The notes under the pieces: generated by a model
Database searches by the model: none
The model's input: the letters and a program-made list of their open reading frames with translations, nothing else
What the model was told of the DNA's origin: nothing
Program-made: the position numbers and the translations under genes
Origin: Candidatus Bathyarchaeia archaeon
GTDB lineage: Archaea; Thermoproteota; Bathyarchaeia; Bathyarchaeales; Bathycorpusculaceae
Assembly: GCA_050010755.1 (NCBI GenBank)
Contig: JBEKKK010000001.1
Location: 128,001 to 192,000 of the forward strand
Reading direction: 5' to 3'
DNA length: 64,000 nucleotides
Shown here: one piece after another, positions 10,669 to 45,712 of the stretch
How positions within the stretch are numbered: the stretch's first letter is position 1
Layout of the letters: each line of letters opens with the position of its first letter

Positions 10669-10722
10669 GCGCCTTCCCTGACGGCTCAAGTCATAGGTTT
10701 CTAGGTGATAAAAGTTTGGGAA

Positions 10723-11916: not shown

Positions 11917-12053
11917 GTTATGCACCTTCAAATTTGTAATACGATTGTGATAAAGCATTGTTTATGCTTTTCGACAACGACACAGCGAAAAGCCCATGCA
12001 TGTTCATGACCATGCGAAGCGACAATGAGATGTGTTCTGCAGTTCGCGAGGTA

Positions 12054-12307
12054 CCGCCCCCTCCCCTTTTTTTCTTTACGTCTATTGTAATGTTGCATTG
12101 TAATGTGTAGGCGTAAATTTCCATGAATCGTGCAGTCTTCCGAAAAGGGTTGGAAATGGCACGCGTGTCAAACTCGGCCCCTCTGTGAGAGTTTAGATTG
12201 AGTTCCTGTTGAGATTTCAACGAGTGAACGGCAGGCTCCTCCCCTTTTTTCCTTTACATCAGACGTAATGTAGCCGTGTAATGTGTCAGCGTAAACGGTC
12301 ACGTTGC
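12054..12307 (-). repeat. Dispersed ~255-bp element, copy 2 (units 12234-12307 and 12054-12125), inverted relative to copy 1
   Basis: Reverse complement gives gcaacgtga..cattacacggctacattacgtctgatgtaaaggaaaaaaggggagg and catggaaa..cattacaatgcaacattacaatagacgtaaagaaaaaaaggggagggggc. The spacer shares ccgtt..ttgaaatct, ggccga and ttcgg..gcac with the copy 1 spacer. Confidence 0.85.
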
Positions 12308-12483
12308 GCGCGCCTATCTTGGGATACCTTAAGCTTTATATTTTCCACTCTGCTTTTGGCAACAAGAAAACAGGCGATCTAGCATGTTCGGTCGGCCTTC
12401 ACGCAGTCTCTTTTTTGGGAAAACGCCCTCGATGAGGGGTGCTTTGGACTGAGAGTGGGGATAGTTTTAGGAGAAGAGGAGCC

Positions 12484-28223: not shown

Positions 28224-28283
28224 TGCGTTCACAAAGCGAGGTTTTTGAAAACAATTGAAGCGTACGCTGGAGGTTGGGGACGG

Positions 28284-28745
28284 TTGAAGAAACTCTTTGT
28301 TCTTTTAGTTCTCTTTGTTCTCTTGTTGTCCTGTTTGTGTGTTCAGTGTAGAGCTGCGAGTGAGACGGATGCGCAATCGGCTGTTAGTGAGGCTTCGCAG
28401 AGGATTGTTACCTGTTACGGGGAGGTTGCAAACGCGAGCAGTGCAGGGGCGAACGTGTCTGCCCTGCTGCAGGTTTTGAACACTGCTGGTGACCTGTTGT
28501 CTAGGGCTCAGTTGGCTCTTGCCGATGGAGATTTCAATTCGTCATCAGCCCTCGCATTGCAGAGTCAGCAGGCGCTGGTGGGGTTTGATGCTCAGTCTGA
28601 GTCGTTGAGGAGTGCGGCTCTGCACAGTGGTTTCGTGGATTTTTGGGTTGACGTTGTGGGTTCTTCGGTGGGCGCGGTGGCTGTTTTAGTTTTAGGCTTT
28701 TTCGTTTGGCGATTCCTGAGCAAGAAGTATCCGGGGGTCACATGA
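28284..28745 (+). CDS. Secreted helical protein with C-terminal membrane anchor
   Basis: Signal peptide, Ala/Ser-rich helices, C-terminal TM followed by basic residues. ATGA overlap with the next gene. Confidence 0.7.
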   Translation: MKKLFVLLVLFVLLLSCLCVQCRAASETDAQSAVSEASQRIVTCYGEVANASSAGANVSALLQVLNTAGDLLSRAQLALADGDFNSSSALALQSQQALVGFDAQSESLRSAALHSGFVDFWVDVVGSSVGAVAVLVLGFFVWRFLSKKYPGVT

Positions 28746-29359
28746 TGAGCATAGGAAAATACGGGGTCACCTTTCTTATTGTCGTCGTTATCCTGGCTCT
28801 GCTGGTGGCTTCGCCGGCCCTGAGCAAGGCTCTTGTTTATCCTCGGACGGATTTTTTCAGTGAGATGTGGCTTTTGGGTTCGAATCATACGGCTGAGGAT
28901 TATCCGTTCAACTTGAGTAGTGGCCAGAGCTATGATATCTATTTGGGTCTTGGGGACCAGTTGGGTTATTGTGCGTATTATCAGGTTGAGGTTAAGTTTC
29001 GGAATGAGAGTCAGTCGATGCCGAGCAGTCTTGGGCCGGTTGAGGATAGGGTTCCGAGTGACTTGCCATCGTTGTATAATGTGAGCGCGTTTGTAGCGGA
29101 TCAGGGCAGTTGGGAGTTGCCGGTTTCGTTTGGTTTCAACTACGTCTATGATGCGAATGCGAGTGCAGTTAGGTTTGAGAGTTTGACGTTTAATGGTAAC
29201 CTGTTGAGTTTAGCTGGGGAAAGCACGGTTTGGAATAGCACGATGAGCAGGTTTTATGGTGATTTAGTTTTTGAATTATGGTTGTACAATAGTTCGTCGA
29301 GCAGCTTCGTTTATCATGACAGGTTTGTGGATTTGAAGCTGAATATGACTGTGACGTAG
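28742..29359 (+). CDS. DUF1616 domain protein
   Basis: N-terminal TM, FSEMWLLG...AEDYPFNL, Y.V.VK, L.FELWLY motifs typical of DUF1616. Confidence 0.8.
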   Translation: MMSIGKYGVTFLIVVVILALLVASPALSKALVYPRTDFFSEMWLLGSNHTAEDYPFNLSSGQSYDIYLGLGDQLGYCAYYQVEVKFRNESQSMPSSLGPVEDRVPSDLPSLYNVSAFVADQGSWELPVSFGFNYVYDANASAVRFESLTFNGNLLSLAGESTVWNSTMSRFYGDLVFELWLYNSSSSSFVYHDRFVDLKLNMTVT

Positions 29360-29368
29360 GGTTCTCGG

Positions 29369-30142
29369 ATGGGTCAATATTACGTGAGGCCGTATAGAGA
29401 CGGTGATGAAGAGGAGGCTGCAAGGCTCTTCAACCAAAGATATCTTGCCTACGGTGGGTTTGTTCCAAGAACTGGTGAGTATTGGTTGTGGTCCTGTCTG
29501 CATAGGCCTGATGTGAGTAGGGAGGGGGTTTTCTTTGTGTCTGAGGAGGGGGCTCAGAATGTTTGTGGGTATGCTGTTGTTGGAACGACTGGGGAGATTT
29601 GGGAGTTTTGTGCGGGTTGTGATGAAGAGGTTGTTTCCTCGGTGCTTTTGAAGGAAATCGCGAGATACGTTGACGGTTTGGGAATCTCTTCTATGAACAT
29701 AAACGTTCCCGATGATGAGGTTCTGTGCAGGGTTCTTGTTCGAGAAGGGTTTTCGAGAGTTCCGGCTGAGAGAATGTTTGTGAGTACGATGAGCGTCGTC
29801 AATTTGCTTTCAAAATTGGTTGTGGATAGAAAACTTGACAGTGAAGAGGTTAATTTCGTGTTTGACCACGTTCCGTTTGGCGTTGAAAGAATTGTTTCAG
29901 TGAAAGTTCATGATGGCGCTGTGTCGGTTGCTGAGGGTTTGTCAAAGTCTGCGGATGTCACGGTCAGAGTTGAATTCGCTTCTTTCTTGTCAATTCTGTT
30001 CGGAACTGCTGGCATGCGTCGAGAGTTGATTAGAAGAAGGATGCGGGTTAAGCCCTTCTGGAAGATTTCGGAAGCGACGGGTTTTCTTCGCAAGGTGCGT
30101 CTTCAGAACGTTTGGTATTGGCCCTTGAGCGATTTTGGTTGA
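29369..30142 (+). CDS. GNAT acyltransferase with C-terminal SCP2-like domain (Eis-like fragment)
   Basis: VRPYRDGDEE, PRTGEYWLW...RPD, GYAVV, C-terminal V.DG.V.V...ADVTV......L SCP2-like pattern. Confidence 0.68.
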   Translation: MGQYYVRPYRDGDEEEAARLFNQRYLAYGGFVPRTGEYWLWSCLHRPDVSREGVFFVSEEGAQNVCGYAVVGTTGEIWEFCAGCDEEVVSSVLLKEIARYVDGLGISSMNINVPDDEVLCRVLVREGFSRVPAERMFVSTMSVVNLLSKLVVDRKLDSEEVNFVFDHVPFGVERIVSVKVHDGAVSVAEGLSKSADVTVRVEFASFLSILFGTAGMRRELIRRRMRVKPFWKISEATGFLRKVRLQNVWYWPLSDFG

Positions 30143-30154
30143 GGATGCAGGAGA

Positions 30155-30979
30155 ATGAGTGAACCGTATTCTTGCCGTCCCTTTCGTAATGGCGACGAAG
30201 AGCAAGTTCAGGAACTTATGAAGACTATCTTCAGTAGGTTCATGGGTGGGGATTATTGGAGTTGGAAGTATCCGCTTAATCCTGGGTTCGATCCGTCTTT
30301 GGTGGTGGTTGCGGAAAAAGATGGCAGAATAATTGGGTGCAATCACTGGTTGCGGAGGAGGCTCAAGATCGATAGTGCTCGTGAAGTTGGTGCTGGTTTG
30401 GGTGCGGACGTTGCGGTGGCTCCTGACTTTAGGAGTATGGGGGTTGGTAAGGCGTTGTTGAAGTTTGTCAGGACGGCGAATCCTTCTAAGAGGTTTGAGG
30501 TGATGTACATTTTTGCTGACCCGGAGTTGGCAAAGCGTTTTCATTCACCAGTAGCGGGTTATGTTCCTGCGCCCGATCGGACGGTTGCCTTTACGAAGAT
30601 TTTGAGCTGGGTGAAGGTCAGAGAGAGCGTTTCTTCTTTCAACAAGAAGATTTCCGAAGGTTCTGGGAAAGAATCTCTCGGGGGCGGTGTTAGTGTTCTT
30701 TTCAGGGTTGCTTCTGCTCCTCCGCTCTTTCTGGGTATTAGAAAGGGAGGCGTGGACGTTTATGAGAAGGAAGCGGCGCTGGAGCGGCGAGCGGACGTTA
30801 CGATTATCGGCGACGCGACGACTTTGAGCAGTCTTAAGGAAGGGGGAAGTGGCATGTGGCCGATGGTGAAGGCTTTGTTGGCGGGGAGGCTCAAGTTGAG
30901 GGGTAAGCCTTGGAAGTTGTGGTCTGTTTATAGGAATTTTTGGGTTTTTAGAGAGGTTTTCGGTGGGAAAATTACGTAG
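30155..30979 (+). CDS. GNAT acyltransferase with C-terminal SCP2-like domain (Eis-like)
   Basis: VVAEKDGRIIG, DVAVAPDFRSMGVGKALL acyl-CoA motif, ADVTIIGD...KALLAGRLKLRG SCP2-like end. Confidence 0.78.
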   Translation: MSEPYSCRPFRNGDEEQVQELMKTIFSRFMGGDYWSWKYPLNPGFDPSLVVVAEKDGRIIGCNHWLRRRLKIDSAREVGAGLGADVAVAPDFRSMGVGKALLKFVRTANPSKRFEVMYIFADPELAKRFHSPVAGYVPAPDRTVAFTKILSWVKVRESVSSFNKKISEGSGKESLGGGVSVLFRVASAPPLFLGIRKGGVDVYEKEAALERRADVTIIGDATTLSSLKEGGSGMWPMVKALLAGRLKLRGKPWKLWSVYRNFWVFREVFGGKIT

Positions 30980-30989
30980 ATGAGGGGTT

Positions 30990-32279
30990 GTGGGTATGCG
31001 TCGGCTGTTTTGGAATAGGAAGATTCAGAAGGCTTCGGAATCTGAGCTTAGGCGGTTGCAGCTTAGGCTTCTCAGGGCACAGGTGCGTTTTGTTTATAAG
31101 AACAGTAGGTTTTACAGGAGGAAGTTCAGGGAGAGCGGAGTGGGCAATCCGCAGATTAGAAGTTTGGAGGATGTTCAGAAGTTGCCGTTCGTTAGTCGGG
31201 AGGAGCTTGAGAGGGGGTTTTGGGATGTGGTTTCGGTTCCGTTTTCTGATGTTTCGACGATTCGGATGTCGAGTGGGAGCGTTGGGTTGCCGTTGGCGAT
31301 TGCTCATACTCAGGGGGATGTTGAGGGTTTCGCTGAGGCGAGTGCTAGGAAGCTGAGTTATCATGGGGTCACGGGGAAGGATGTTGTGCAGGTCACGTCT
31401 GCTTATGGCTTGTGGCAGGGGGCCTGGTCGGTTCATTGGGGTGCTGAGAAGATTGGCGCCTGCACCATTCCCGTTGGGGCTGGGGATACGGAGAGGCAGA
31501 TTCGCATCATTAGACAGTTCAAGCCGACCGTTCTGTACGGTGTGACGAATTATCATTTGAGAATAGCCGAAGTTGCTAAGTCGATGGGCCAGTCTCTGAG
31601 GGATAGCAATCTGTGGTTGGGTGTTTGCGTGGCTGAGAGGCCGACTAAGCAGCAGGTTGAGGTTTTGAAGAGAGAGTTCGGTTATGAGAAGGTGGCGCTG
31701 GATTATGGGGCTACGGAGTTTCCGGGGTTTTCTGTTAATTGTGATTGCAGTGATTTTCATCATGTTTGGGCGGATTATTATTTGGTTGAGGTTGTGGATC
31801 CGCGGACGCATGAGCTTTGTGGGGAAGGCGAGAAGGGCGAGCTAGTCCTTACGAGCCTTCAGAGGAAAGGGTTTCCGTTGGTTAGGTATCTTTCTCGGGA
31901 TGTTACGACTTTCATGGGGTTCGGAGAGTGTGAGTGTGGGATGTCGCATCCTAGGGTTGGGACGGAGATTGACCGCGAGGATTTCATGATTAAGATTCGG
32001 GGAGTGCCGGTTTTTCCGAGTCAGATAGAGATTATTCTGGAGAGGTTTCTGGAATTGGTGGGTAATTGTCAGATAATGGTTGATAAGCGTACGCCGCAGC
32101 AGGAGGCCAGTTTGAAGGTTGAGATGCGGGAATCTCTAGGGCAGGATGATAAGAGGTCTTTGGCGTTCCAGATTGTTGAAGAAGTGAAGAACAGGGTGGG
32201 TGTGAGCTTTAATGATGTGGTTTTTGTTCCTGCGGGAACTTTTGATGTGAAGTATAAGAAATCCCTCGTAATCAGTTGA
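30990..32279 (+). CDS. Phenylacetate-CoA ligase family (PaaK-like) acyl-CoA ligase, divergent
   Basis: S.FYRRK, LPF, SSGSVG P-loop, IPVGAGDTERQI, YGATE, EVVDP, GELVLTSL....PLVRY, IRGV.VFPSQIE. Confidence 0.88.
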   Translation: MGMRRLFWNRKIQKASESELRRLQLRLLRAQVRFVYKNSRFYRRKFRESGVGNPQIRSLEDVQKLPFVSREELERGFWDVVSVPFSDVSTIRMSSGSVGLPLAIAHTQGDVEGFAEASARKLSYHGVTGKDVVQVTSAYGLWQGAWSVHWGAEKIGACTIPVGAGDTERQIRIIRQFKPTVLYGVTNYHLRIAEVAKSMGQSLRDSNLWLGVCVAERPTKQQVEVLKREFGYEKVALDYGATEFPGFSVNCDCSDFHHVWADYYLVEVVDPRTHELCGEGEKGELVLTSLQRKGFPLVRYLSRDVTTFMGFGECECGMSHPRVGTEIDREDFMIKIRGVPVFPSQIEIILERFLELVGNCQIMVDKRTPQQEASLKVEMRESLGQDDKRSLAFQIVEEVKNRVGVSFNDVVFVPAGTFDVKYKKSLVIS

Positions 32280-32325: not shown

Positions 32326-33603
32326 ATGTTGTTCTGTGTTTCGGTTTCTCACAAGCAGACGAGTCTTTCTATGTTGGAGTCTCTCAGTTTTCCGAGTGGG
32401 GAGGAGGCTGCGAGAGCGTTTTGTGAGCAGGGAACGTTGGCTGAGTGTGTGCTTCTTCAGACTTGTCACAGGATTGAGATTTACGGGGTGACTGCTGATT
32501 TTGCGAGGGGCGATGCTGTGGATGTGATTCTCAGGTCTTGGAGTTCTAGGGCGGGTGTGAGTTTTGATGTTTTGAGGAGGGTTTTTGAGTTGTATGATGG
32601 GCGGGAGGCGTTGGCGCATCTTTTTTCTCTTGCCGCTGGGTTGGAGTCTATGGTTGTGGGTGAGGATCAGATTCTGGGGCAGGTGCGTTCGGCTTATGTT
32701 GAGGCGAAGAGGGCGGGGAGTGCTGGTCGGATTCTTGATAAGGTTTTTATGAAGGCGGTGAACACGGGCAGGAGAGTGAGGACTGAGACGGGGATTAATG
32801 AGGGTTCGGTTTCGGTGAGTTCTGCGGCGGTTGATTTGGCTGTGAAGGAGCTTGGGGGTCTCGAGTCGGCGACGGCGCTGGTCATCGGTGCCGGAGAGGC
32901 GGGTTCTATCGCGGCGGAGACGCTTCAGAGGAGGGGTGCTAAACGGATTGTGGTTGCGAATCGAACGCGGGAGAGGGGTGAGGCTTTGGCCCTGAAGGTT
33001 TCTGGGAGGTCGATAGGTCTGGACGGTGTGTATGATGAGATTCCGAGCGTGGATCTAGTGATTTCTGCGGTGTCGGTGAAGAAGCCGATTTTGGAAGCGA
33101 GCCGTCTTAGAAGCGCGTTGGGGAAGAGTAGTAGTGGTAAGCGTTTGCTTGTTGTGGATATTTCTCAGCCGCGGGCTGTGGATGCTAAGGCTGGTTCGAT
33201 TCGTGGTCTTGTGTTGAGGAATATTGAGGATCTGAAAGGGGTTGTGGAGGATAGCATTCGGAGGAGGCGGGGTGAGGCGGAGAGGGCGAGGTTGTTGGTT
33301 GGTGAGGAGCTTGCTCGGTTTGAGCAGGAGTTGTCGTGGATTCTTGTGTTGCCTTTGGCTTCGGAGATTTATCGGAGTTTGGAGGTTGTTAGGAGGAGTG
33401 AGTTTGAGAGGGCTGTCAGGAAGATGGGTGAGTCTGATGGGCGGAAGATTTCGGTGATGGAGAGGTTTTCGAAGGAGTTGGTGGAGAGGATTATGCAGGT
33501 TCCGATGGAGCGGTTGAAGAGGGCGGCTCTTAACAATGAGGGTGAGTTGCTTTCGGCTGCGGAGAAGCTGTTCAAGAATAACCGGGGAGGCGTTGCAGAT
33601 TGA
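32326..33603 (+). CDS. hemA: Glutamyl-tRNA reductase
   Basis: TCHR.E.Y catalytic Cys motif, GLESMVVGEDQILGQV, VRTETGI, GAGEAG NADPH motif, ANRT, DISQPR. Confidence 0.95.
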   Translation: MLFCVSVSHKQTSLSMLESLSFPSGEEAARAFCEQGTLAECVLLQTCHRIEIYGVTADFARGDAVDVILRSWSSRAGVSFDVLRRVFELYDGREALAHLFSLAAGLESMVVGEDQILGQVRSAYVEAKRAGSAGRILDKVFMKAVNTGRRVRTETGINEGSVSVSSAAVDLAVKELGGLESATALVIGAGEAGSIAAETLQRRGAKRIVVANRTRERGEALALKVSGRSIGLDGVYDEIPSVDLVISAVSVKKPILEASRLRSALGKSSSGKRLLVVDISQPRAVDAKAGSIRGLVLRNIEDLKGVVEDSIRRRRGEAERARLLVGEELARFEQELSWILVLPLASEIYRSLEVVRRSEFERAVRKMGESDGRKISVMERFSKELVERIMQVPMERLKRAALNNEGELLSAAEKLFKNNRGGVAD

Positions 33604-34871
33604 CCAGGTCTGAGAGGCTTTTTGCCAGGGCGAAGAAGTTGATTCCAGGCGGTGTGAACAGTCCGGTTCGGGCTTTTTCGCCTTATCCGTTTTTCACGAA
33701 GTCTGCGAAGGGTTCGAAGCTTACGGATGTGGATGGTGTGGAGTTTGTTGATTATTGTTTGGGTTATGGGCCTTTGATTTTGGGGCATGCTGATGAGCGG
33801 GTTATGGGTGCTGTTCGGGAGCAGTTGGGTCGTGGGTCGTTGTTTGGTACGCCTTCCGAGGGGGAGGTGGAGCTTGCTGAGTTGATCTGTAAGCTTGTGC
33901 CTTCGGCTGAGATGGTTCGGCTTGTGAGCACGGGTGGGGAGGCGACGATGAGTGCGATTAGGCTTGCGAGGGGTTTTACGGGGAGGAAGAAGGTTTTGAA
34001 GTTTGAGGGTTGTTATCATGGGGCTCATGATTGTGTGTTGGTGAAGGCGGGTTCTGGCTTGTTGACGTTCGGGATGCCTGATTCTCTTGGGGTTCCTGAG
34101 GAGACGGCTGGGAACACGGTTGTGGTGCCGTTTAATGATGTTGCTGCTTTCGAGGCGATGGTGAAGAGGGAGCGCCGTGAGCTTGCGGCGGTGATTGTTG
34201 AGCCTGTTATCGGCAACATAGGCGTTGTCCTGCCTAAGGAGGGTTTTCTTGAGGCGTTGCGGGAGATTACGGAGCAGTATGGGGTTGTTCTGGTGTTTGA
34301 TGAGGTGATTACAGGCTTCAGATTAGCCCTGGGTGGGGCTCAGGAGTTTTATGGTGTTAAGCCGGATTTGACGACTCTGGGTAAGATTCTTGGGGGTGGT
34401 TTTCCCTTGGCGGCTTTCGCCGGGCGGGAGGATATCATGCGGATGATTGCGCCTTCTGGAAAAGTGTACCAAGCCGGCACTTTCAGCGGCAATCCGGTCA
34501 GCGTTGCGGCAGGCTTGGCGGTGTTGAGAACCTTGCGGGCTCGGAGGAGCTTCTATTCTATGATGGAGAAGAAATGCGAGGGGCTTGTCAAGCAGCTGAG
34601 GCAGGTTGCGAATGATGCGAGAGTGCAGGTTCAGGTTAACAGTGTCGGTTCGATGTTTCAGATGTTCCTGTCCGAGGAGCCCGTGTTCGACTATGCCAGC
34701 GCAAAGAAGAGTGACAGCAAGAGGTTCATGCAGTTTCATCATGCGCTCCTACAGCATGGAGTTTTCATTCCGCCCTCACAGTTTGAAACCTGCTTCCTAT
34801 CTGCGGCTCACAGCGATGGAGACTTGAAGATGACGATTGAGGCTTACAAGCAGGCTCTCGAGTCAATTTGA
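33600..34871 (+). CDS. hemL: Glutamate-1-semialdehyde 2,1-aminomutase
   Basis: PGGVNSPVRA, YGPLILGH, FEGCYHG, FDEVITGFR, TLGK (PLP Lys), YQAGTFSGNP, PSQFE. Confidence 0.97.
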   Translation: MTRSERLFARAKKLIPGGVNSPVRAFSPYPFFTKSAKGSKLTDVDGVEFVDYCLGYGPLILGHADERVMGAVREQLGRGSLFGTPSEGEVELAELICKLVPSAEMVRLVSTGGEATMSAIRLARGFTGRKKVLKFEGCYHGAHDCVLVKAGSGLLTFGMPDSLGVPEETAGNTVVVPFNDVAAFEAMVKRERRELAAVIVEPVIGNIGVVLPKEGFLEALREITEQYGVVLVFDEVITGFRLALGGAQEFYGVKPDLTTLGKILGGGFPLAAFAGREDIMRMIAPSGKVYQAGTFSGNPVSVAAGLAVLRTLRARRSFYSMMEKKCEGLVKQLRQVANDARVQVQVNSVGSMFQMFLSEEPVFDYASAKKSDSKRFMQFHHALLQHGVFIPPSQFETCFLSAAHSDGDLKMTIEAYKQALESI

Positions 34872-34953: not shown

Positions 34954-36051
34954 ATGGGTAATCCCGAAGTTTCCGTGGTTGTTGCAACTTACAAGGGTGC
35001 AAATACGCTGAGGTATGTGTTGGAGGGTTTGAGTCAGCAGACTTTTAGGGATTTTGAGGTTGTGGCGGTTGTGAAGCCGAGTGCGGATCAAACTCTGGAG
35101 CTTCTGAGGAAGTATGCGGATCAGCTTGAAATCGAGGTTGTGACTCAGAAGAATGGGAACGTTGTGGACGCCGAACAACTTGGTTTAGAACGTGCTAAGG
35201 GAAGGATAATCGTTTTCTTTGATGATGACGCAGTTCCGAGACCGGATTGCATTGAAGAGCACGTCAAAACTTATGCAGACCAAAGGATAGGCGGTGTGGC
35301 GGGCGACCTGATTCCTTCCACTATAGCTGATGGTGTCGTGAAGGAGCTTGAGGAGGTTGAGGTGCCGCCTTCGCAGTCGGCTAGGACACGTCTTTCGGCG
35401 AGGGTCTGGGATCATCCGGTGGAGGGGCTTGAGCAATATCGCTGCTGCGTGACTAGGTGTGGTTTCATTTGGCATGGGTTTTTGTTGGCGGACAACCCAG
35501 TGGGAAACCTTGTTTATTGGAGAAAAAGGGGAATGGTAAAGTCTTTTCTGGGGCCAGGTGCCAACATGTCTGTTTTGGCCTCAGCAGGAAAAGGCACAGT
35601 GTTTGAGAAGACAGATTACTGGAGAAGAGGCTATGCGTGGGAGCAATTCTTGGCGTGGCAAGTATGGAAAAAGGGGTACTCAATGGTTCTTAATACTAAG
35701 GCGCGGGTGGAGCACATTCTTCTTGACGGGCATCTCACTGGAGGCCTTTATGCAACTAGCGTTAAGAACGCGGCGCCGGGCGAACTGGAGAAAACAGACA
35801 GCGTTGAAAAAGCGCGCGCTATTGGGTATGATCACATCAGGGAGGAGCATCTTCTCTTTTTTCGACTTTATCGCCGAGGAAGTGGGCTTTCGCTGTTTGC
35901 CAAATTCTGTTCCGTAGCAAATGATGCTTTGTATTTCTTTAAGACGGTGAGAAGTCTGCAAGAATCCAAGAATCTCAGGGTTCTGTTCGTTTCAAACTTG
36001 ATTGGTCTGAGATGGTTGTTGTCCGACGCACATGGTGCACGTCTTTCTTGA
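34954..36051 (+). CDS. Glycosyltransferase family 2
   Basis: VSVVVATY, QQTF.DFEV, FFDDDA DxD motif, GANMS. Confidence 0.85.
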   Translation: MGNPEVSVVVATYKGANTLRYVLEGLSQQTFRDFEVVAVVKPSADQTLELLRKYADQLEIEVVTQKNGNVVDAEQLGLERAKGRIIVFFDDDAVPRPDCIEEHVKTYADQRIGGVAGDLIPSTIADGVVKELEEVEVPPSQSARTRLSARVWDHPVEGLEQYRCCVTRCGFIWHGFLLADNPVGNLVYWRKRGMVKSFLGPGANMSVLASAGKGTVFEKTDYWRRGYAWEQFLAWQVWKKGYSMVLNTKARVEHILLDGHLTGGLYATSVKNAAPGELEKTDSVEKARAIGYDHIREEHLLFFRLYRRGSGLSLFAKFCSVANDALYFFKTVRSLQESKNLRVLFVSNLIGLRWLLSDAHGARLS

Positions 36052-36149
36052 AATATTGTTAGGCTGGGAATAACCTTCTAATAACGTCTTCAGGTTTTGT
36101 TGAGGTTGAAAGCACTAGCGCTCAATGCAAAATAGGTGGGTGTGACACT

Positions 36150-37370
36150 GTGAGAATTGCGTTCGTAGATGTGGACATGTCCCTGAGAACTGGGTCGAGG
36201 CGTTTTACTTGTGAGGTGGCATGTCAACTTCAGAGCATGGGGCATGAGGTCGGAATTTTCACGTCTAGGCTGGATACTCAGAGATGTTTCAGAAAGGTCC
36301 TATCTCTTCCTGTTTACGTTGCTTCGCGAAGTTCTTCTCAAGATGGGGGCGCAAGTGGTCTGGGGAGGGTTATCAGGAAGCTCGGAAAGAATGTGATAAT
36401 CAATCTCGCGAGTGAGTATAGATATGATATGGTAGAGACCGATTTCGCTTTGAAGACGAGCGAAAAGATCATGAGCATGGGATATGAAGCAGTTCTTTTT
36501 CAATACCATGGGGAGCATTGGCTTTTTCCAGTCTTCTATCACCTGAATGGAGCGAAAGGTGCCGTGTATCTTAACATGGTTCCTCCGAGGGCTGGCCGGG
36601 AGGCTTTGCCTTTTCAGAAATTGACTATGGAGCGAAGGATATTGGACAGATTGGTCAGTCTGCCTTTTGTCCATAGGTTTGAGAACGCAAGCCTCAGAAA
36701 CATCGGTCTGTTCATTGCCCCGAGCGAGTACCAGCTTCAACAGGCGACGGTGCAAGGTGTGATTGGGCAAAAGAGGGCTGCGGTTGTTCCATTAGGAGTT
36801 GATCATTCTGAGTTTTGTCCAACGGATGAAGAGGAGCCTTTTGCGCTCTATGTGGGACGGATCCATCCTCACAAGTCGCTGGAACTGGCGATGATTTCCA
36901 TGAAGAACAGGGGTTCAGACTATCCATTGGTGATTGCTGGAGATGTTGACCAAAGCAACGTCCAATATGTGGAGAGACTTCTGAGTCTGGCAGATGAATT
37001 GAAAATTTCTGACAGGTTTGAACTGATTCTGCGTCCGTCAGAAAAGCGGATTGTCAGGTTGATGCAGAGTTGTTCAGTTTTCTTGTTTCCAAGCACAATA
37101 GATACTTTTGGACTTGTGGTTCTTGAATCCATGGCTTGTGGAAAACCGGTTGTGGCCTGCAACAGAGGGGGTGTTCCAGAAATAGTCGGAGATGCGGGAT
37201 TATTGGTCGAGCCGGACGTGGCGCAGTGGAAGAGGGCCATGACAAGATTGCAGTCAGATTCTGAGTTTCGGCATGCTTTGGGACGAAAGGCATTGAAAAG
37301 ATCCGAAGCGTATTCATGGAAACATACGACTTGCCAGTTGCTTGAAGCTTTCGGCACTAACTGCGCCTAG
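36150..37370 (+). CDS. Glycosyltransferase family 4
   Basis: VPLGVD, YVGRIHPHK, FPS..DTFGLVVLESMACGKPVV, GGVPEIV. Confidence 0.92.
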   Translation: MRIAFVDVDMSLRTGSRRFTCEVACQLQSMGHEVGIFTSRLDTQRCFRKVLSLPVYVASRSSSQDGGASGLGRVIRKLGKNVIINLASEYRYDMVETDFALKTSEKIMSMGYEAVLFQYHGEHWLFPVFYHLNGAKGAVYLNMVPPRAGREALPFQKLTMERRILDRLVSLPFVHRFENASLRNIGLFIAPSEYQLQQATVQGVIGQKRAAVVPLGVDHSEFCPTDEEEPFALYVGRIHPHKSLELAMISMKNRGSDYPLVIAGDVDQSNVQYVERLLSLADELKISDRFELILRPSEKRIVRLMQSCSVFLFPSTIDTFGLVVLESMACGKPVVACNRGGVPEIVGDAGLLVEPDVAQWKRAMTRLQSDSEFRHALGRKALKRSEAYSWKHTTCQLLEAFGTNCA

Positions 37371-37493: not shown

Positions 37494-38357
37494 GTGTCAA
37501 AATTGCTTTCTGTTGTGATTCCTGCGTTGAACAGTGCGGTAACAATTTCGGACACTCTTTCATCGATTTTCTCGAATGAAACCAGTGGCGGAAGGTTCGA
37601 GGTTCTTCTGGTTGATAATGGAAGTTGTGATGAAACGGTTGAGATAGCAAGAAGGTTTCCTGTGAAGATATTCCACTGCTCAAGAAGAGGCATAGGGCCT
37701 CCGAGAAATTTGGGGATTCAGAAGGCCCGAGGGGACATCGTAATCTTCACGGACTCTGATTGCATAGTCGAAAAAGATTGGATAACAAAGATATCCGCTT
37801 TCTTCAACCGACACTCAGAAGCTGACGGAGTCGGTGGGCCGGTATTTCCCTACCCTTATTGTCAAAATAGGATTCAGGAATTGACTGGAAAACTTTTTGT
37901 GGAAGACCAAGGTTATCCCAGAAGAATCAGGAAAATTCAACCTGGTTCCACGCAGGGGCTTATTTTCGGCTCAAACAGCGCTTACAGGAGAAGCGTGCTT
38001 GTGAAATCTGGTGGCTTCAATGAGCCGGGAGGGTCAAACCTAGAACTCGCGTTGAGGCTTGTTGCTAATGGAAAGAACCTGTTTTTCTATCCTGGCATAA
38101 TAGTGTACCACGTTTTTCCAAGCAACCTTAAGTCTATTTTCAGACAACAATTTAGGTGGGGAGCACAATCGACTCACATGAAGCGGATGCATCACCTTGA
38201 TAAGGGAGCAAGGGAAATCGTTTACATTTCTTACTTTCCTGTTCGGCGTTTGCTTTCTTTACTTTTTCCTGTGGATTTGGAAAAGAAGTTGTTACACTTT
38301 ACTCAGGTGGCGAGTTACGGTTTAGGTCGCGTCTATGGATTTCAGTTAGAATCTTGA
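37494..38357 (+). CDS. Glycosyltransferase family 2
   Basis: SVVIPALN, VDNGSCD, RNLG, FTDSDC, QQFRWG. Confidence 0.9.
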   Translation: MSKLLSVVIPALNSAVTISDTLSSIFSNETSGGRFEVLLVDNGSCDETVEIARRFPVKIFHCSRRGIGPPRNLGIQKARGDIVIFTDSDCIVEKDWITKISAFFNRHSEADGVGGPVFPYPYCQNRIQELTGKLFVEDQGYPRRIRKIQPGSTQGLIFGSNSAYRRSVLVKSGGFNEPGGSNLELALRLVANGKNLFFYPGIIVYHVFPSNLKSIFRQQFRWGAQSTHMKRMHHLDKGAREIVYISYFPVRRLLSLLFPVDLEKKLLHFTQVASYGLGRVYGFQLES

Positions 38358-38446: not shown

Positions 38447-39529
38447 ATGAAAAGGAGTTTGAATCGTGCTTCAAATGCGGTACGATACGGTGTTCTGTAC
38501 TTGGGAAATTACTCTTTTCTGAAACTTATCTCTCCGAACCCAGATTATGCTGAGGTGAGGGTTACCGAGGGATGTAATAGCAGATGCGTAACGTGTAGGG
38601 CTTGGAAAAATTCGAGAGAAGGTGAATTATCTACTCAGGAAATGATCAGTGCCTTCGAGCAATTGAGAAGAATCGGGGTCGAGTCCATTCGCATCTCTGG
38701 AGGAGAGCCGTTGATTCGATCTGATATTATAGAGTTGATAAAAGAGTGCAAAAGGCTGAAATTTCGACAGATATACCTCGCAACAAACGGCCTTCTGCTT
38801 CATCAGAAGGCTGAAGATCTTGTTGAGGCCGGAGTTACCCATTTTGGCGTTTCGTTAGATGGAATTGAAGAGACTAATGATATGATTCGAGGAGTCCCTG
38901 GAAGTTACGAGAGAGTCTCAGAAGGCATTCGTGCTGTAAAAGGTTCTATGAAGAAAGTGGGGGTTAGCTTTCCTGTAACGGTCTTTACGACCTTGCTGAG
39001 GCAGAATATTCGTGAGGTGCCGCGGCTCTTGAAACTCTGTGAAGATATTGGTGCAAACTGGTGTTTCAGTTTGCTGGATGGGAATCTTGATTTTTTTGAG
39101 GGCGTTGATATTTCAGAATTGGTGGTTAACGATTGGAAAGTCATTGATGAAACCATAGATTATCTGCAGAAGCTATGGAGGGAGAAACCTTGGCTTGTTT
39201 ATTCTGGACCGAACATTCTTGAATATGCCAGAAACTACCTTAAGGGGGTAAACAGGGATGATGATGTTCCGTGCACTCTCGGATACAAGCTGATCTCACT
39301 AGGATCCAGGGGAGAAGTCTATCCCGGATGCTATGTTTTCAAGTCTATCGGAAACATAAGGCATAAGGCACTAGGTGAAATAGTGAAGTCTAAGGAATAC
39401 GCAGCCCTTGCTGAGAAAATGTATCGTGGAGAATGCGCGGGCTGCACCTTCTTCTATGAAGACAACGTTCTAATCAGGAACATGTTTCCAAGAGTGGAAA
39501 GAATAAGAAGTTTAATGAGAAGCAAATGA
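38447..39529 (+). CDS. Radical SAM protein with SPASM/twitch domain
   Basis: CNSRCVTC (CxxxCxxC), SGGEP, TNG, SLDG, and C-terminal C...GEVYPGC...GNI...CAGC. Confidence 0.92.
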   Translation: MKRSLNRASNAVRYGVLYLGNYSFLKLISPNPDYAEVRVTEGCNSRCVTCRAWKNSREGELSTQEMISAFEQLRRIGVESIRISGGEPLIRSDIIELIKECKRLKFRQIYLATNGLLLHQKAEDLVEAGVTHFGVSLDGIEETNDMIRGVPGSYERVSEGIRAVKGSMKKVGVSFPVTVFTTLLRQNIREVPRLLKLCEDIGANWCFSLLDGNLDFFEGVDISELVVNDWKVIDETIDYLQKLWREKPWLVYSGPNILEYARNYLKGVNRDDDVPCTLGYKLISLGSRGEVYPGCYVFKSIGNIRHKALGEIVKSKEYAALAEKMYRGECAGCTFFYEDNVLIRNMFPRVERIRSLMRSK

Positions 39530-40479
39530 ACATGGCTCTTCCACGCACTCTTTTTTTGACGTTTGATGTAGAAGATTTCATCAATGATAGATCAATCAAG
39601 GCTTTGAATTGCATTCTGGAGATGTTGAAAAAGAATAAACTTGGGGCTTTATTCTTTATCACGGGACACATGGCGGAAAAACTTGCCGGGCAGGAAGAGA
39701 CTCTCGGACTTCTTCGCGAACATCAAATAGGCTATCATTCATCATGCCATTCGGTGAGACCTACAATTCTTGAATACACGGATGTGGAGAACTATGATGA
39801 AGCTCTCTTGGAGTCCGAAAAAAGGGAGACTTCACACATAAATCCGCTGACAGGAGAAATTGAAGGAAAGGGCGGAATTCACATCTTGCGAGAGTTATTT
39901 GGGAACAGCAGGATTGAAGCTTTTAGGGCTCCAGATTACTGTTGGGCTCCCCCGCATCTGGAAGCACTGAACAAGTTGGGTTTCCATTATGATTTCTCTA
40001 CAAAAATGGTCCACGAGCCTGCTTCCTACAAGGGTATAACCTTTTACCCGTACCCTATGTGTCATTATTGGAAAGGAAGGTCTAGCTACCTTAGGCTAGC
40101 ACGCTGTGTTGCTGTTAAAAAGACGACTGTTTTGAATTTTCATGATTGGGATTTTGTAAACAGTAAAGCTTGGAATTACTTTTACAGAAACGGTAATCCT
40201 GAAAAGTTGTTCAAGGTTCCTCCCCGAAGCCATGAATCGATGGAAAACATGTTTACCAGCTTTGAGTCCTTTCTGAAAAGGGTCAAGGCTCTTGAAAAGA
40301 CAGGAATAGTCAGAGTCACGCCAAAGCTTGAAAACCCTGGAAAACGCCTTGAGATTAACAGAGTTCCTGTGGAACAGGTGTGCAGAGAAATTACGCGTTG
40401 GTTTAAAGGCGATTATTTCTACCAAATAAGATATCTTAATCAGCACTTCAAAACGTTTTTTGAAGCAGATCACGATTGA
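39526..40479 (+). CDS. Polysaccharide deacetylase (NodB/CE4-like)
   Basis: LTFDVED, IGYHSSCH, FRAP and NFHDW motifs. Confidence 0.85.
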   Translation: MNMALPRTLFLTFDVEDFINDRSIKALNCILEMLKKNKLGALFFITGHMAEKLAGQEETLGLLREHQIGYHSSCHSVRPTILEYTDVENYDEALLESEKRETSHINPLTGEIEGKGGIHILRELFGNSRIEAFRAPDYCWAPPHLEALNKLGFHYDFSTKMVHEPASYKGITFYPYPMCHYWKGRSSYLRLARCVAVKKTTVLNFHDWDFVNSKAWNYFYRNGNPEKLFKVPPRSHESMENMFTSFESFLKRVKALEKTGIVRVTPKLENPGKRLEINRVPVEQVCREITRWFKGDYFYQIRYLNQHFKTFFEADHD

Positions 40480-40594
40480 AATGTCTGCAATTAGGCATTT
40501 GGCAGGTTTAGGGCAATGAAGCCTTAAAAGCGACACCCAAGTGAAACTTGACTGATTAGAGAATGTAATGCTCAAAATATCAGGAGTGATTTTG

Positions 40595-41572
40595 ATGCGT
40601 TTAACATCTAGAATCAAAAAGTCGAAGGCGATGATCCGTCTTGTGAGACCTTTTGAATTGGCTCCTAGTGACCTGATTTATGCAATTTTTGTTAGGGAGG
40701 ATGGGAAGAGTTATGAGATACCTTCCATGAAAGGCCAGCGCTATCTTTCTCTGGATGGTGCCGCTGAGACCTGTCGGAAGACCGTTGAATTGGGCATCCC
40801 CGGGATGATGGTGTATGGCGTTTTGAAGGAGAAGGATGCGGACGGTTCCATAGCTCTCGGGAAGAATGCTTTTCACAGGAAAATCTTTCGAAGACTCAGG
40901 AAGGAGGTTGGTGACGATCTGGTCCTCATATCCAACCTCTGTCTGTGCGATTACACGGCAGAGGAGTTTTGCGTTTACTCAGATAAGGGAAAGGTGCTTA
41001 ATGAGAAGACTGCGGAGATGCTGGGAAAGATGGCTGTAGTTCACGCTGAGGGTGGCGCGGATGTGATTGCTCCTGCGGGAATGTGTGACGGGCAGGTTGG
41101 ATGCATAAGGGCGGCTTTGGATAGAGAGGGCTTTGAAGACGTTGCCGTGATGAGTTACATCAAGACTGACAGCTGTCTGTTTGAGCCTTATTTTGAAGCT
41201 ATGACATTGTCGAATACTCCTAGACGCGGTGTGGATTCCAGCAAGTTCCGAACGGACGTAATCAACGAGAAGATGTTCATGCAAAAGGTCGACTTGGACA
41301 TCAACGAAGGAGCGGACATGGTTATCGTGAAACCCGCGCTGACGAATCTGGATCTTGTGCTCGCAGTCAAACAGAGGTATCCTACGATTCCAATCGCTGC
41401 CTATCAGGTAAGCGGCGAATATGCCATGATCAAGCTGCTGGCGGAGCATACTCGTGTTGATGAGAAGACTCTGTTCTTGGAGACACTAAGTTCCATTAAG
41501 AGGGCAGGAGCAGACATGATACTGACGTATTACGCTCAGGAAGCAGCGAAACTCTTGACTGAGCGAATGTAG
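40595..41572 (+). CDS. hemB: Porphobilinogen synthase (HemB/ALAD) homologue, divergent A-site
   Basis: CLCDY...C Zn triad, GADVIAP..M.DGQV, MSY-K, EGAD...VKPA, AYQVSGEYAMI, KRAGAD.ILTY. Start ATG 40595 after GGAGTGA (track: 40568). Confidence 0.9.
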   Translation: MRLTSRIKKSKAMIRLVRPFELAPSDLIYAIFVREDGKSYEIPSMKGQRYLSLDGAAETCRKTVELGIPGMMVYGVLKEKDADGSIALGKNAFHRKIFRRLRKEVGDDLVLISNLCLCDYTAEEFCVYSDKGKVLNEKTAEMLGKMAVVHAEGGADVIAPAGMCDGQVGCIRAALDREGFEDVAVMSYIKTDSCLFEPYFEAMTLSNTPRRGVDSSKFRTDVINEKMFMQKVDLDINEGADMVIVKPALTNLDLVLAVKQRYPTIPIAAYQVSGEYAMIKLLAEHTRVDEKTLFLETLSSIKRAGADMILTYYAQEAAKLLTERM

Positions 41573-41757: not shown

Positions 41758-42453
41758 TTGCCAAAGAAACGTGTTTTGAGGAAAAGAATGGTTGTGTTTT
41801 CTCCGCATCCTGACGATGGAGCTCTGGGCTGTGGAGGTACCATCGCGAAGAGGGTGAGTGAAGGGTTTGACGTTTATGTGGTCATGTTGACGGATGGCAG
41901 GCATGCGTTTTCCAAGAGGCTAGGGATAAGCTCGGAGCCAAGTCCGGAAGAAGTGAAGCAGATTAGGAGACTAGAATTCACAAAGGCTATGAAGATGCTG
42001 GGCGTGCCCGAGAAAAATCTTCTTTTCTTTGATTTCGAAGATGGAACATTAGAGATGCATAGGGACGAAGCTGAGGAAAAAACAATAGCTATAATTGAAA
42101 AGTATTGGCCTGCTGACATGTATTACCCGTTTAGAAGAGATTGTCATCCGGATCATCAGGCAACGAACTCGATTGTGCGTCACGCACTGCAGCAGCTGAG
42201 GTATGCCGGATCGTATGAATACACTATTACACACACGTACGCGCATCTGGGTCCGTTAATGGAGAGGTTCCTAAGTCTTCTCAAGAGAGACGAGGTTGAA
42301 GAAGACATTTCAGCGTTCCTCAATCTCAAAGAGAGGGTACTTGACGAGTACAAAAGCGTAACGACAATAATCTCAAGTAAGCAAAAAAAACCTCTTCACA
42401 CAAGCGTGAAAAGATTCTTGAAGAAGAAAGAGATATTCCGCGAATCAAAGTAG
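41758..42453 (+). CDS. PIG-L/LmbE family de-N-acetylase
   Basis: PHPDD...GCGG, LTDG, R..E...A...LG, HPDH. Confidence 0.92.
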   Translation: MPKKRVLRKRMVVFSPHPDDGALGCGGTIAKRVSEGFDVYVVMLTDGRHAFSKRLGISSEPSPEEVKQIRRLEFTKAMKMLGVPEKNLLFFDFEDGTLEMHRDEAEEKTIAIIEKYWPADMYYPFRRDCHPDHQATNSIVRHALQQLRYAGSYEYTITHTYAHLGPLMERFLSLLKRDEVEEDISAFLNLKERVLDEYKSVTTIISSKQKKPLHTSVKRFLKKKEIFRESK

Positions 42454-43802: not shown

Positions 43803-44792
43803 ATGGAGAATCGTAGGCTTAGGGTCGGCGTAGTGGGGTTGGGGAAGATGGGTCTCGTTCATTCCAGTATTTTGAGTGTTTTACCCAACGCTGAAGTTAC
43901 AATTTTGTGCGAGAAGAGTGGTATGCTCCGACGATTCTTTAGCAAGATCTTCAGGAGAGTGCCCGTCGTAGATGATGTTTCCATGTTTTCTGACCAGAAT
44001 TTGGACGCGGTTTTCGTAACTACTCCCATCAACTCTCACTTTCCAGTCGCGCACGCGGTTTATTCCGACAAGTTAGCCTCAAACCTTTTCGTTGAGAAGA
44101 CTTTGGCCAGCAGTTTTGGCGATTCTCAGGAGCTCTGTGCCAGGGCTCGGGAGGCGGGTGGCATCAACATGGTGGGCTATCTTAGAAGGTTCTACGTGAC
44201 TTTCAAGAAGGCAAAGAGTCTTTTGGATGAGAGCACGATCGGTGAGTTGTCTACTTTCAAGGCATATGCGTTTTCTTCTGACTTCGTTGGAAACGAGAAA
44301 GATGGCGAATTTGGGGGGGTTCTGAGCGATTTGGGCTGTTACGCGATGGATTTGGCGCTGTGGTTCTTCGGTGATGTCAATGTGAAGCCGGAGAGTGTAG
44401 CTCGGATTTCAGAGGGTGATGTTCAAAATGTTGTGCGGTTTGAGCTGAACCGGGCAGATGGTTTCAGTGGTACATGTGATGTTTCTTGGCGAATGAAGAA
44501 CTATAGAATGCCTGAAGTTGGTTTTTTGGTAGAGGGTTCGAAGGGAAAAGTCCAAGTTGATGATGACAGAGTTGAGTTGAAATTAAATGATGGAAATTCA
44601 CGCAGATGGTTCCGACATGATCTTTCGGACAACGTGCCTTTCTGGCTGTCAGCTCCTGAATACTACAGAGAGGACGAGTATTTTGTACGGTGTGCACTTG
44701 ATGGCTTTCGGACGGAGCCTTCTTTTGAATCGGCATGCAAGGTGGACAAGATGATTGACGACGTGAAGAGCAGATTGAAGCTGAGAGGTTGA
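43803..44792 (+). CDS. Gfo/Idh/MocA family oxidoreductase
   Basis: VVGLGKMG, TTP..SH, EKTLA, GG.L.DLGCY. Confidence 0.9.
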   Translation: MENRRLRVGVVGLGKMGLVHSSILSVLPNAEVTILCEKSGMLRRFFSKIFRRVPVVDDVSMFSDQNLDAVFVTTPINSHFPVAHAVYSDKLASNLFVEKTLASSFGDSQELCARAREAGGINMVGYLRRFYVTFKKAKSLLDESTIGELSTFKAYAFSSDFVGNEKDGEFGGVLSDLGCYAMDLALWFFGDVNVKPESVARISEGDVQNVVRFELNRADGFSGTCDVSWRMKNYRMPEVGFLVEGSKGKVQVDDDRVELKLNDGNSRRWFRHDLSDNVPFWLSAPEYYREDEYFVRCALDGFRTEPSFESACKVDKMIDDVKSRLKLRG

Positions 44793-45712
44793 GTGTTATG
44801 GACAAAAAATTTTTCCTCGTGGGGGATAACCCTTTTCACAGTATAAGTCATCTTTCGCAGGAACGGAGCAGGGCGAGGAGTGATTTCGCTACTCAGCCTG
44901 AGAGCGCTGCACGTCTTGTGTCTTTAGCAGTTGAGAATGGTGCAAATGGATTCATGTTTTCTGTCAGCGACACTACTCTCGGAATTCTGAGAAAGTTGCG
45001 GATAGAAGGGGTAACGTCAGGGTTAGATATTTTTGCAATCGTGCCCTATGCCTACGAATATGTGAGGCTGGCTGCACAGTCTGGCGGTCTGGTCGGGCTG
45101 GGGCAGCGATTCGGCAAGCAGCTCTTGCTTTCCGGCAATCTCGGGGCCGTTGGGGGCGGCTTGAAGGGCGTTCTGCGGATGAATCCTGAGTCGCTTCTGA
45201 GGACGTATCTGAGTTTTGAGCTCTCGAGAATCCGCTCGGCAGCTGGAAAGCACGCGAATGTGGAGTCAGTTTTGCTGCATGAGGTTATAACTGACATGGC
45301 TTTGGCGCTGGATATGGACTGGCTGTTCAAGGCCTACGTGAAGTTTCTGCGCGGTAAGGACATTGTACCCGGTTTCAACACTTGCAATTTTGCTTGTTTG
45401 GCTGATAAGTTCGAAAGATGGGGATTTGAGCTGGGTGAGGTTGTTATTGCCGCGCCTTTCAACAAGGTTGGTTTTCAAATGAACCCGTCAAGGGAAGAGT
45501 GCGAAAAGGCTCTTTCGAAGTTGAAGGTTTCTGTCACGATTGCGATAAGTGTCTTGGCCGCTGGGTATCTGAAAGTTCCTGAAGCAGTGGATTATGTCGC
45601 TGGGTTGCCAAACGTGAAAGGTTTGGCTGTCGGCGTCTCAAAAGAAGCTCACGCTAGAGATACTTTCAGGTTCATTAGAGAAAGGTTTGATAGTGCACGC
45701 GCTCTAGGTTAG
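44789..45712 (+). CDS. Conserved hypothetical protein (probable TIM barrel, aldo-keto-reductase-like)
   Basis: LVGDNPF..SH, PFNKVGFQM and SVLAAG motifs. Overlaps the oxidoreductase stop. Confidence 0.65.
   Translation: MSVMDKKFFLVGDNPFHSISHLSQERSRARSDFATQPESAARLVSLAVENGANGFMFSVSDTTLGILRKLRIEGVTSGLDIFAIVPYAYEYVRLAAQSGGLVGLGQRFGKQLLLSGNLGAVGGGLKGVLRMNPESLLRTYLSFELSRIRSAAGKHANVESVLLHEVITDMALALDMDWLFKAYVKFLRGKDIVPGFNTCNFACLADKFERWGFELGEVVIAAPFNKVGFQMNPSREECEKALSKLKVSVTIAISVLAAGYLKVPEAVDYVAGLPNVKGLAVGVSKEAHARDTFRFIRERFDSARALG

Follow-up and report, generated by a model that had tools for sequence, protein, structure and literature searches.

What does a homologue of HemB do in a genome in which neither HemC nor HemD is found? 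This question is raised by a 64,000-nucleotide stretch of DNA from a Candidatus Bathyarchaeia archaeon (GenBank assembly GCA_050010755.1, contig JBEKKK010000001.1, positions 128,001 to 192,000, forward strand; hereafter the window), which encodes a variant HemB of the 5-aminolevulinic acid (ALA) dehydratase (ALAD, or porphobilinogen synthase) family at window positions 40595-41572. HemB is regarded as universal and as serving a single purpose. In the variant, the ALAD fold and all of the covalent and zinc machinery are retained and both of the arginines that bind the A-side carboxylate are missing, while its gene travels with hemA, hemL, a ligase, a pair of GNAT genes, deacetylase, radical SAM and glycosyltransferase genes, and not with hemC, hemD or SUMT. 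Our favoured reading, to which we give about an even chance, is that porphobilinogen synthase has here given rise to a neofunctionalised paralogue, which is dedicated to one pathway separate from tetrapyrrole synthesis and feeds a pyrrole-bearing N-acyl decoration of a surface glycan.

The gene occupies an open reading frame of 334 aa at window positions 40568-41572 on the forward strand, and its homologues place the start at M10 (40595), in agreement with the original prediction, giving a protein of 325 aa (P0001; P numbers here denote proteins, G numbers genomes, C numbers contigs and L numbers loci). The Pfam ALAD profile PF00490 matched it at 312 bits across residues 14-328 and profile positions 5-316 of 317, and an AlphaFold2 model built from a 74-sequence alignment reached a predicted local distance difference test score (pLDDT) of 92.5 and a predicted template modelling score of 0.91, with lower confidence in the active-site lid. 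The model superposed on the ALAD of Pyrobaculum calidifontis (PDB 5lzl) with a template modelling (TM) score of 0.94 and on Escherichia coli ALAD with 0.91, at a sequence identity of 36-39%, and the top relatives in the PDB were the ALADs of Chlorobium (221 bits), P. calidifontis (209 bits) and E. coli (187 bits). By the full-length profile match and the TIM-barrel fold of the model, the variant thus belongs to the ALAD superfamily. A search for fused forms found none and returned a single protein, an unrelated canonical-like one of 592 aa. Source databases and automatic pipelines label the variant 'porphobilinogen synthase', and it passed the cut-off of the NCBIfam porphobilinogen synthase equivalog profile NF006762 only marginally (315.4 bits against 297). 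On this profile, the variants ranged from 307 to 335 bits and canonical Bathyarchaeia HemBs from 482 to 523 bits, which is about 170-200 bits higher, and the sister proteins P0122 and P0123 fell below the cut-off with 265 and 279 bits, respectively.

We mapped the active-site residues with a HMMER alignment to E. coli ALAD (PDB 1b4e), whose numbering is used below, and every substitution listed in the original prediction was reproduced. Among the features expected of a porphobilinogen synthase, the variant retains both Schiff-base lysines (K195 and K247), the Cys3 zinc site (C120, C122 and C130), with an altered surrounding loop in which HGHCG has become EEFCV, and the P-side carboxylate ligands S273 and Y312. 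It has changed R205 to F, R216 to S, Q220 to R, D118 to N, Y201 to F, E232 to K and, by the replacement of APS with APA, S165 to A. The lid is three residues longer than that of E. coli ALAD, and the N-terminal arm reads MRLTSRIKK where the canonical form has MR---RLRR, with Ile in place of one conserved Arg, so that its earlier description as eroded was fair. At the lid positions expected to hold the A-side carboxylate, namely R205, R or K at 216, and Q220, which we presume to act as an A-side lid residue, the variants carry F/Y, S/P and R, respectively. The P-site had been described as kept; this holds for the lysines, S273 and Y312, but D118 and S165, which we take to bind the amino group on the P-side, the future pyrrole nitrogen, are both changed, and the P-site is therefore not wholly kept.

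A report on human ALAD with porphobilinogen describes coordination of the A-site substrate by Arg209, Arg221 and the Cys3 zinc, and coordination at the P-site by Ser279, Tyr318, Lys199 and Lys252 (PMC13465085). Judging by their offset from the lysine, human Arg209 and Arg221 probably correspond to E. coli R205 and R216. In an article by Jaffe, the carboxyl of the Km-determining substrate bonds with basic residues of the lid, leading to lid closure, and metazoan and fungal ALADs are stated to carry Arg where others bind the allosteric magnesium (PMC7729013). Because of this Arg in metazoan and fungal enzymes, E232K need not be a defect.

Among the 120 closest proteins (73-100% identity to the query, taken from a protein set that holds at least 120 such), F at R205, R at Q220 (Arg228), N at D118 and K at E232 were each found in 120/120, and the R216 position held S in 113 and P in 7. 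Both lysines, all three cysteines and Y312 were likewise present in 120/120, S273 in 119 and a further arginine of the lid, Arg219, in 118. Where the sources of close homologues were named, they were Bathyarchaeota or Bathyarchaeia, with the one exception of a metagenome-assembled genome labelled Acidobacteriota. At 14 key columns, canonical Bathyarchaeia HemBs (27/27) read D-C-C-C-S-K-Y-R-R-Q-E-K-S-Y, while 14 variant rows, in which some genes are represented twice, read N-C-C-C-A/S-K-F-F/Y-S/P-R-K-K-S-Y, and the two sets of rows separate cleanly; in deeper variant branches the R205 position is Y rather than F. By the terms of the original prediction, the same substitutions in housekeeping archaeal HemBs next to hemC would have counted against it; they were absent from all six hemC-adjacent canonical copies as well as from the 27 canonical rows, so that the prediction withstands this check. 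More widely, the R205, R216, Q220 and D118 columns were occupied by R, R or K, Q and D in 84 of 102 diverse full-length ALAD representatives. Of the 54 columns with at least 85% conservation among these 102 proteins, 38 are retained in the variant clade, whose clear-cut column switches sit in the metal loop, the A-site lid and the allosteric-magnesium position. Judged from these alignments, the remodelling of the A-site is real, clade-wide and fixed, and not a matter of chance or drift. The further claim that a different keto partner is used and that the product is not porphobilinogen is plausible but unproven, because a carboxylate might still be held by the new arginines, namely the invariant one at the Q220 position and the near-invariant Arg219.

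The genome of the window (G000; 2.19 Mb in 8 contigs, 93.5% complete) holds the variant as its sole ALAD gene and the hemA gene at window positions 32326-33603 as its sole glutamyl-tRNA reductase gene. HemC and HemD had no match in this genome; the same searches were positive in 11-12 of 14 control genomes. A second hemL-like gene of G000, encoding a class-III aminotransferase at G000:C6:23786-25027, scored 415.6 bits on TIGR00713, below the cut-off of 527.3. Across the six genomes that hold only the variant (G000, G022, G023, G025, G232 and G377; 86-100% complete), HemC was found in 0/6, HemD in 0/6 and SUMT in 0/5 of those searched (G000, G022, G023, G025 and G232); the hemC and hemD context of a porphobilinogen synthase was thus not found in these genomes. 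Among 41 relatives, a canonical-level HemB with 39-47% identity to the query was found in six genomes, and HemC was found in exactly those six at a distance of 1-2 kb. The variant was found in four of the 41 (G000, G022, G023 and G025), none of which had HemC, and its distribution is patchy, with 0/4 same-genus genomes holding it. The two variant copies of G025 (L017 on contig C49 and L018 on contig C2) are each 69% identical to the query, and both are flanked by Gfo/Idh/MocA and DUF362 genes.

In a sample of 401 genomes of the class, eight held the variant, one of them as a fragment, and the variant never adjoined hemC in the loci examined. Three of the eight (G247, G394 and G412) carry the variant together with a canonical copy in a hemA-hemB-hemL-hemC operon, in G394 partly so. 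A second, intact hemA lies inside the variant cluster of G247 and a second hemA lies on a different contig in G394, while a second hemL above the cut-off was found in none of the three genomes. In G412, where the full operon is located at 1.573-1.577 Mb, the sole extra hemA is a pseudogene with TAG and TAA stops (G412:C1:2248918-2249365) about 24 kb from the variant, which is itself an intact open reading frame of 328 aa. Given that redundant genes of ALA supply decay or vanish while the variant persists, the canonical HemB apparently cannot replace the variant, which argues that the two are not redundant.

The variants also stand apart as a clade. In a protein library clustered at 50% identity, a single representative at 568 bits stood for all of them, with 255 bits for the next full-length protein, and in the 401-genome sample the identity to the query was bimodal, being either 62-77% or at most 47%. 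Three divergent HemB-like proteins, P0125 (52% identity), P0122 (42%) and P0123 (40%), share parts of the variant pattern; the shared parts are a one-residue deletion before K195, the loss of R205 and Q220R, and in P0122 the Cys3 site is partly lost as well. In a quick LG+G4 tree, P0122 and P0123 grouped with the variant clade, and the 70 canonical rows all fell elsewhere. An approximately unbiased test did not reject a single clade of variant and canonical Bathyarchaeia HemBs (p 0.154), and therefore both an in-lineage duplication and an older origin of the variant clade are compatible with the data. No P0123-like proteins were found in the 401 Bathyarchaeia genomes at E 1e-90, in a search run without a positive control, and no relatives of P0123 were found at E 1e-80 in a large protein set. 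Eleven bacterial loci (Terriglobia, Acidobacteriaceae and Desulfitobacteriaceae) retrieved by a GTDB pattern scan were canonical HemBs and were dropped.

The neighbourhood of the variant was compared with the other variant loci by tblastn of the window proteins, on which all statements of synteny are based, and genes without matches were assigned with Pfam. The genes of the module and their coordinates in the window are as follows.

28245..28745, + strand: small 166-aa protein at the module start; no Pfam match, tblastn orthologues in the same place in G022 and G399
28706..29359, + strand: DUF1616 membrane protein; PF07760 at 33 bits, syntenic in G022, G023 and G399
29369..30142, + strand: GNAT-SCP2-like protein of 257 aa, a distant paralogue of 30155-30979; BLASTP E 2e-6 with colinear N- and C-termini, SCP2 weak at E 0.057
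30155..30979, + strand: GNAT acyltransferase of 274 aa with an SCP2-like tail; Acetyltransf_9/7/1, SCP2 at E 0.006
30990..32279, + strand: PaaK-family adenylating ligase; AMP-binding and AMP-binding_C_2, 249 bits to PDB 4r1l (phenylacetate-CoA ligase)
32326..33603, + strand: hemA, glutamyl-tRNA reductase; TIGR01035 at 352.7 bits against a cut-off of 209.6
33600..34871, + strand: hemL, glutamate-1-semialdehyde 2,1-aminomutase; TIGR00713 at 611.8 bits against 527.3, 4-nt overlap with hemA
34954..37370, + strand: GT2 and GT4 glycosyltransferases; Pfam
37494..38357, + strand: conserved GT2, found after hemL in most loci; Pfam, orthologues of 55-67% in G022, G232, L054, L057 and L059
38447..39529, + strand: radical SAM/SPASM enzyme; Radical_SAM and SPASM, NCBIfam matches all far below cut-offs
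39526..40479, + strand: CE4-type polysaccharide deacetylase; PF01522, orthologues in G023, G025, G412 and L054
40595..41572, + strand: variant HemB (ALAD family, remodelled A-site); PF00490, NF006762, HMMER alignment and AlphaFold2
41758..42453, + strand: PIG-L/LmbE-type de-N-acetylase; PF02585 at 98.6 bits
42587..45712, + strand: GT2, Gfo/Idh/MocA sugar dehydrogenase and conserved 307-aa protein; Pfam, with no match for the 307-aa protein

The recurrent part of this module comprises the small 166-aa protein, DUF1616, the two GNAT-SCP2-like proteins, the PaaK-family ligase, hemA, hemL, GT2, the radical SAM/SPASM enzyme, CE4, the variant HemB and PIG-L, together with Gfo/Idh/MocA dehydrogenases, DUF362 and the 307-aa protein, and its synteny spans several genera and two or more families. 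The PaaK-like ligase and the GNAT were present in 8/8 variant loci with visible upstream DNA. Full-length orthologues of the GNAT at 30155..30979 were found in 7 of the 401 class genomes, six of which hold the variant; the seventh, G399, has a ligase-GNAT-hemA-hemL-GT2-radical SAM stretch on a contig that ends before the HemB position. The GNAT-SCP2-like gene at 29369..30142 is syntenic in G022, G023, G232, G247, G412 and G399. A PDB match by sequence was found for neither of the two GNAT-SCP2-like proteins, and the structure model of the one at 30155..30979 was poor (pLDDT 68), with Eis-type GNATs as its top folds at a TM score of only 0.38. The ligase is a member of the PaaK family by its 249 bits to PDB 4r1l and not a PaaK equivalog, as it scored 273 bits on TIGR02155 against a cut-off of 646.

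Among the genes that act on glycans, the conserved GT2 at 37494..38357 had weak matches to MftF, NodC and PgaC. The CE4 deacetylase had a paralogue match in G232, and a separate CE4 gene, recognised by Pfam only, lies in the G247 locus. The PIG-L gene directly follows the variant in G022, G023, L056, L057 and L059, and its product had BshB1 (70.9 bits, below the cut-off) and BshB2 as its best NCBIfam matches. The radical SAM/SPASM enzyme, with orthologues of 43-81% identity in G022, G025, G232, L054, L057 and L059, matched cytosylglucuronate decarboxylase BlsE best in the PDB (59.6 bits); we considered and rejected a tetrapyrrole role for it, as matches to AhbD and NirJ were far below the cut-off and no better than that to MoaA. 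The first Gfo/Idh/MocA gene and the gene for the 307-aa protein form a pair that is syntenic in G023, G232 and L054. The 307-aa protein (44789-45712) had no Pfam, NCBIfam or PDB match, and in Atlas it matched only clusters of 'hypothetical protein', which are widespread in bacteria and archaea.

The module sits within a larger glycan island that includes eight GT2 and two GT4 glycosyltransferases, a hexapeptide acetyltransferase, three FemAB-like proteins, DUF2206 and a Wzx-type flippase. The three FemAB-like (PF13480) acyl/aminoacyl-transferase genes are located at 53853-54959, 60576-61703 and 61707-62858 of the window and the flippase gene at 62913-63998, which hints at further amino-acid-type decorations of the same glycan.

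Other loci vary the theme. Between the GNAT and the variant, the G247 locus (L073, G247:C5:112001-132000) carries a UbiD-family decarboxylase, two B12-radical SAM enzymes, DUF362, a PNP/UDP phosphorylase and a MiaB-like radical SAM enzyme, and its product looks more heavily tailored; the UbiD family acts on aromatic acids, pyrrole carboxylates included. The G412 cluster includes DUF1919, a methyltransferase and a B12-radical SAM enzyme, and the genes immediately upstream of the variant in G023 encode a UDP-sugar dehydrogenase and two sugar epimerase/dehydratases. The idea that B12-radical SAM neighbours are limited to genomes with the canonical tetrapyrrole pathway was dropped, since the variant-only genome G023 has one. 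In L059, the variant HemB (9995-10973) and the following GT2 (11936-12998) are each in two frame-shifted pieces, reflecting either a pseudogene or an assembly error.

Under the favoured reading, ALA made by the HemA and HemL of the cluster would occupy the conserved P-site, and the A-site would accept a keto partner that either has no carboxyl end or has it blocked. This partner would most likely be ALA already linked through its carboxyl, in a thioester or amide formed by the ligase and the GNATs, and condensation would yield a porphobilinogen-like monopyrrole. On an amino-sugar amine unmasked by the CE4 and PIG-L deacetylases, the ligase and the GNAT pair would place the ALA-derived acyl group, leaving a surface glycan or glycoconjugate with a pyrrole-bearing decoration. 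In the most specific form of this reading, which we consider less likely than not, some Bathyarchaeia would use the C5 pathway (hemA and hemL) and the variant to build a monopyrrole instead of tetrapyrroles: the variant would condense free ALA with carboxyl-tethered ALA (a thioester, or an amide on glucosamine), so that a cell-surface glycan would bear a porphobilinogen-like N-acyl group.

Several points weigh against this reading. The A-side partner and the identity of the product are inferred from sequence, and the amino-sugar acceptor from gene neighbourhood. The absence of hemC, hemD and SUMT is judged from metagenome-assembled genomes that are 86-100% complete. The variant HemB was not found in the GNAT-holding G399, which is 87% complete and whose contig ends as described, and a GNAT orthologue was not found in the variant-holding G025. 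The remaining points also support the main rival, according to which the variant is an authentic porphobilinogen synthase serving the same secondary (glycan or natural-product) pathway, with Arg228 and Arg219 replacing R205 and R216, the PaaK-like ligase activating the acetate arm of porphobilinogen and the GNATs transferring it. The lysines, the Cys3 zinc site, S273 and Y312 are all retained, the two arginines, of which the one at the Q220 position is invariant, may rebuild the carboxylate site and yield ordinary porphobilinogen, and the protein still scores above the NCBI cut-off for porphobilinogen synthase. PaaK-family ligases typically take aryl-acetates, and by chemical reasoning the pyrrole-3-acetate arm of porphobilinogen is one; with the match of the ligase to phenylacetate-CoA ligase, free porphobilinogen would fit as its substrate at least as well as ALA. 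On the other hand, an authentic synthase leaves unexplained why R205, R216, Y201, D118 and S165 were replaced and the replacements fixed, and why the variant persists alongside a canonical HemB in genomes where the cluster hemL, and in G412 also hemA, has been lost or has decayed. We therefore regard this rival as possible but doubtful.

A Schiff-base reaction of another kind, in which no pyrrole arises and a keto-sugar or ALA-derived substrate undergoes, say, aldol-type condensation or cyclisation, is in our view rather improbable. It would account for D118N and S165A, which affect the residues that we assume to hold the P-side amino group, and the conserved neighbouring Gfo/Idh/MocA dehydrogenases could make keto-sugars. 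However, the zinc site and both lysines of the two-substrate pyrrole chemistry are fully conserved, the hemA and hemL of the cluster point to ALA as the substrate, and such a reaction is not known to have a precedent in the ALAD family, with none found in literature term searches.

It is unlikely, and we give the idea little weight, that the variant is the housekeeping HemB of a divergent lineage that continues to make tetrapyrroles and in which HemC and HemD have been replaced by unrecognised analogues or are missing from the assemblies. Although the variant is the only ALAD of G000, shares the window with hemA and hemL and is annotated as porphobilinogen synthase by its sources, and although the genomes are metagenome-assembled and incomplete, HemC, HemD and SUMT were found in no variant-only genome searched for them, G247 and G412 hold the variant as well as a complete canonical hemA-hemB-hemL-hemC operon, as G394 does in part, and its synteny is with the ligase, GNAT and glycan genes and never with hemC. 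That the variant is a functionless remnant, in decay since the loss of a tetrapyrrole pathway, as the patchy distribution and the frameshifts of the L059 gene might suggest, is very unlikely, given that the reading frames are intact in nearly all copies, the catalytic residues are conserved and the new residues fixed among the closest homologues, and the synteny is kept across genera and families.

We compared the variant and its cluster with known systems. The variant shares with the zinc-dependent HemB/ALAD enzymes (E. coli 1b4e and P. calidifontis 5lzl) the fold, the lysines, the Cys3 zinc site and S273/Y312, and differs from them in having no R205/R216, in Q220R, D118N, S165A, Y201F and E232K, in the EEFCV loop and the longer lid, and in its location away from hemC. 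A non-tetrapyrrole use of ALA is known from the C5N (2-amino-3-hydroxycyclopent-2-enone) pathway of Streptomyces, in which an ALA synthase (ALAS), an acyl-CoA ligase that gives ALA-CoA and an amide synthetase act together. The C5N ring is attached to larger molecules such as the glycolipid moenomycin, and the pathway is bacterial, draws ALA from the C4 (ALAS) route and is not known to use a HemB homologue. Both systems would thus use ALA outside tetrapyrrole synthesis in a dedicated cluster with an adenylating ligase and an amide-forming step, the roles in our cluster being proposed ones, but here the ALA would come from hemA and hemL and the ring-former belongs to the ALAD family, while the C5N ring is a cyclopentenone and not a pyrrole.

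In combining a glycosyltransferase with a CE4 or PIG-L deacetylase and a transfer step that would load an acyl or aminoacyl group onto the glucosamine amine thus exposed, the cluster resembles the modules that de-N-acetylate and then re-acylate, namely NodC/NodB/NodA for Nod factors, MshA/MshB/MshC/MshD for mycothiol and BshA/BshB for bacillithiol. It is unlike them in scores far below the family cut-offs, in the proposed ALA-derived acyl donor and in having no cysteine ligase. Among the fold matches of the variant model was PDB 2woq, which belongs to the alaremycin system. Alaremycin is an ALA-analogue antibiotic that inhibits HemB; HemB is its target, and no A-site-remodelled HemB is known to be involved. 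The likeness therefore lies in ALA-like chemistry combined with an N-acetyltransferase and HemB, the latter being the target there and, as proposed, a biosynthetic enzyme here. Term searches of a literature library returned nothing on a HemB-like or porphobilinogen synthase-like enzyme with a new function, and nothing on hemB without hemC in Bathyarchaeia.

In sum, there is a realistic chance that the variant points to a new kind of glycan chemistry. If the favoured reading is true, genome-based calls of tetrapyrrole capacity in Bathyarchaeia would be wrong for the lineages that carry the variant, ALA would have a second metabolic fate in archaea, and the ALAD scaffold would have been re-used for a new two-substrate condensation. 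The most specific form of the reading would add the first non-tetrapyrrole fate of porphobilinogen synthase chemistry and a new class of glycan decoration. The favoured reading also points to an unknown surface chemistry on abundant archaea of peat and wetlands.

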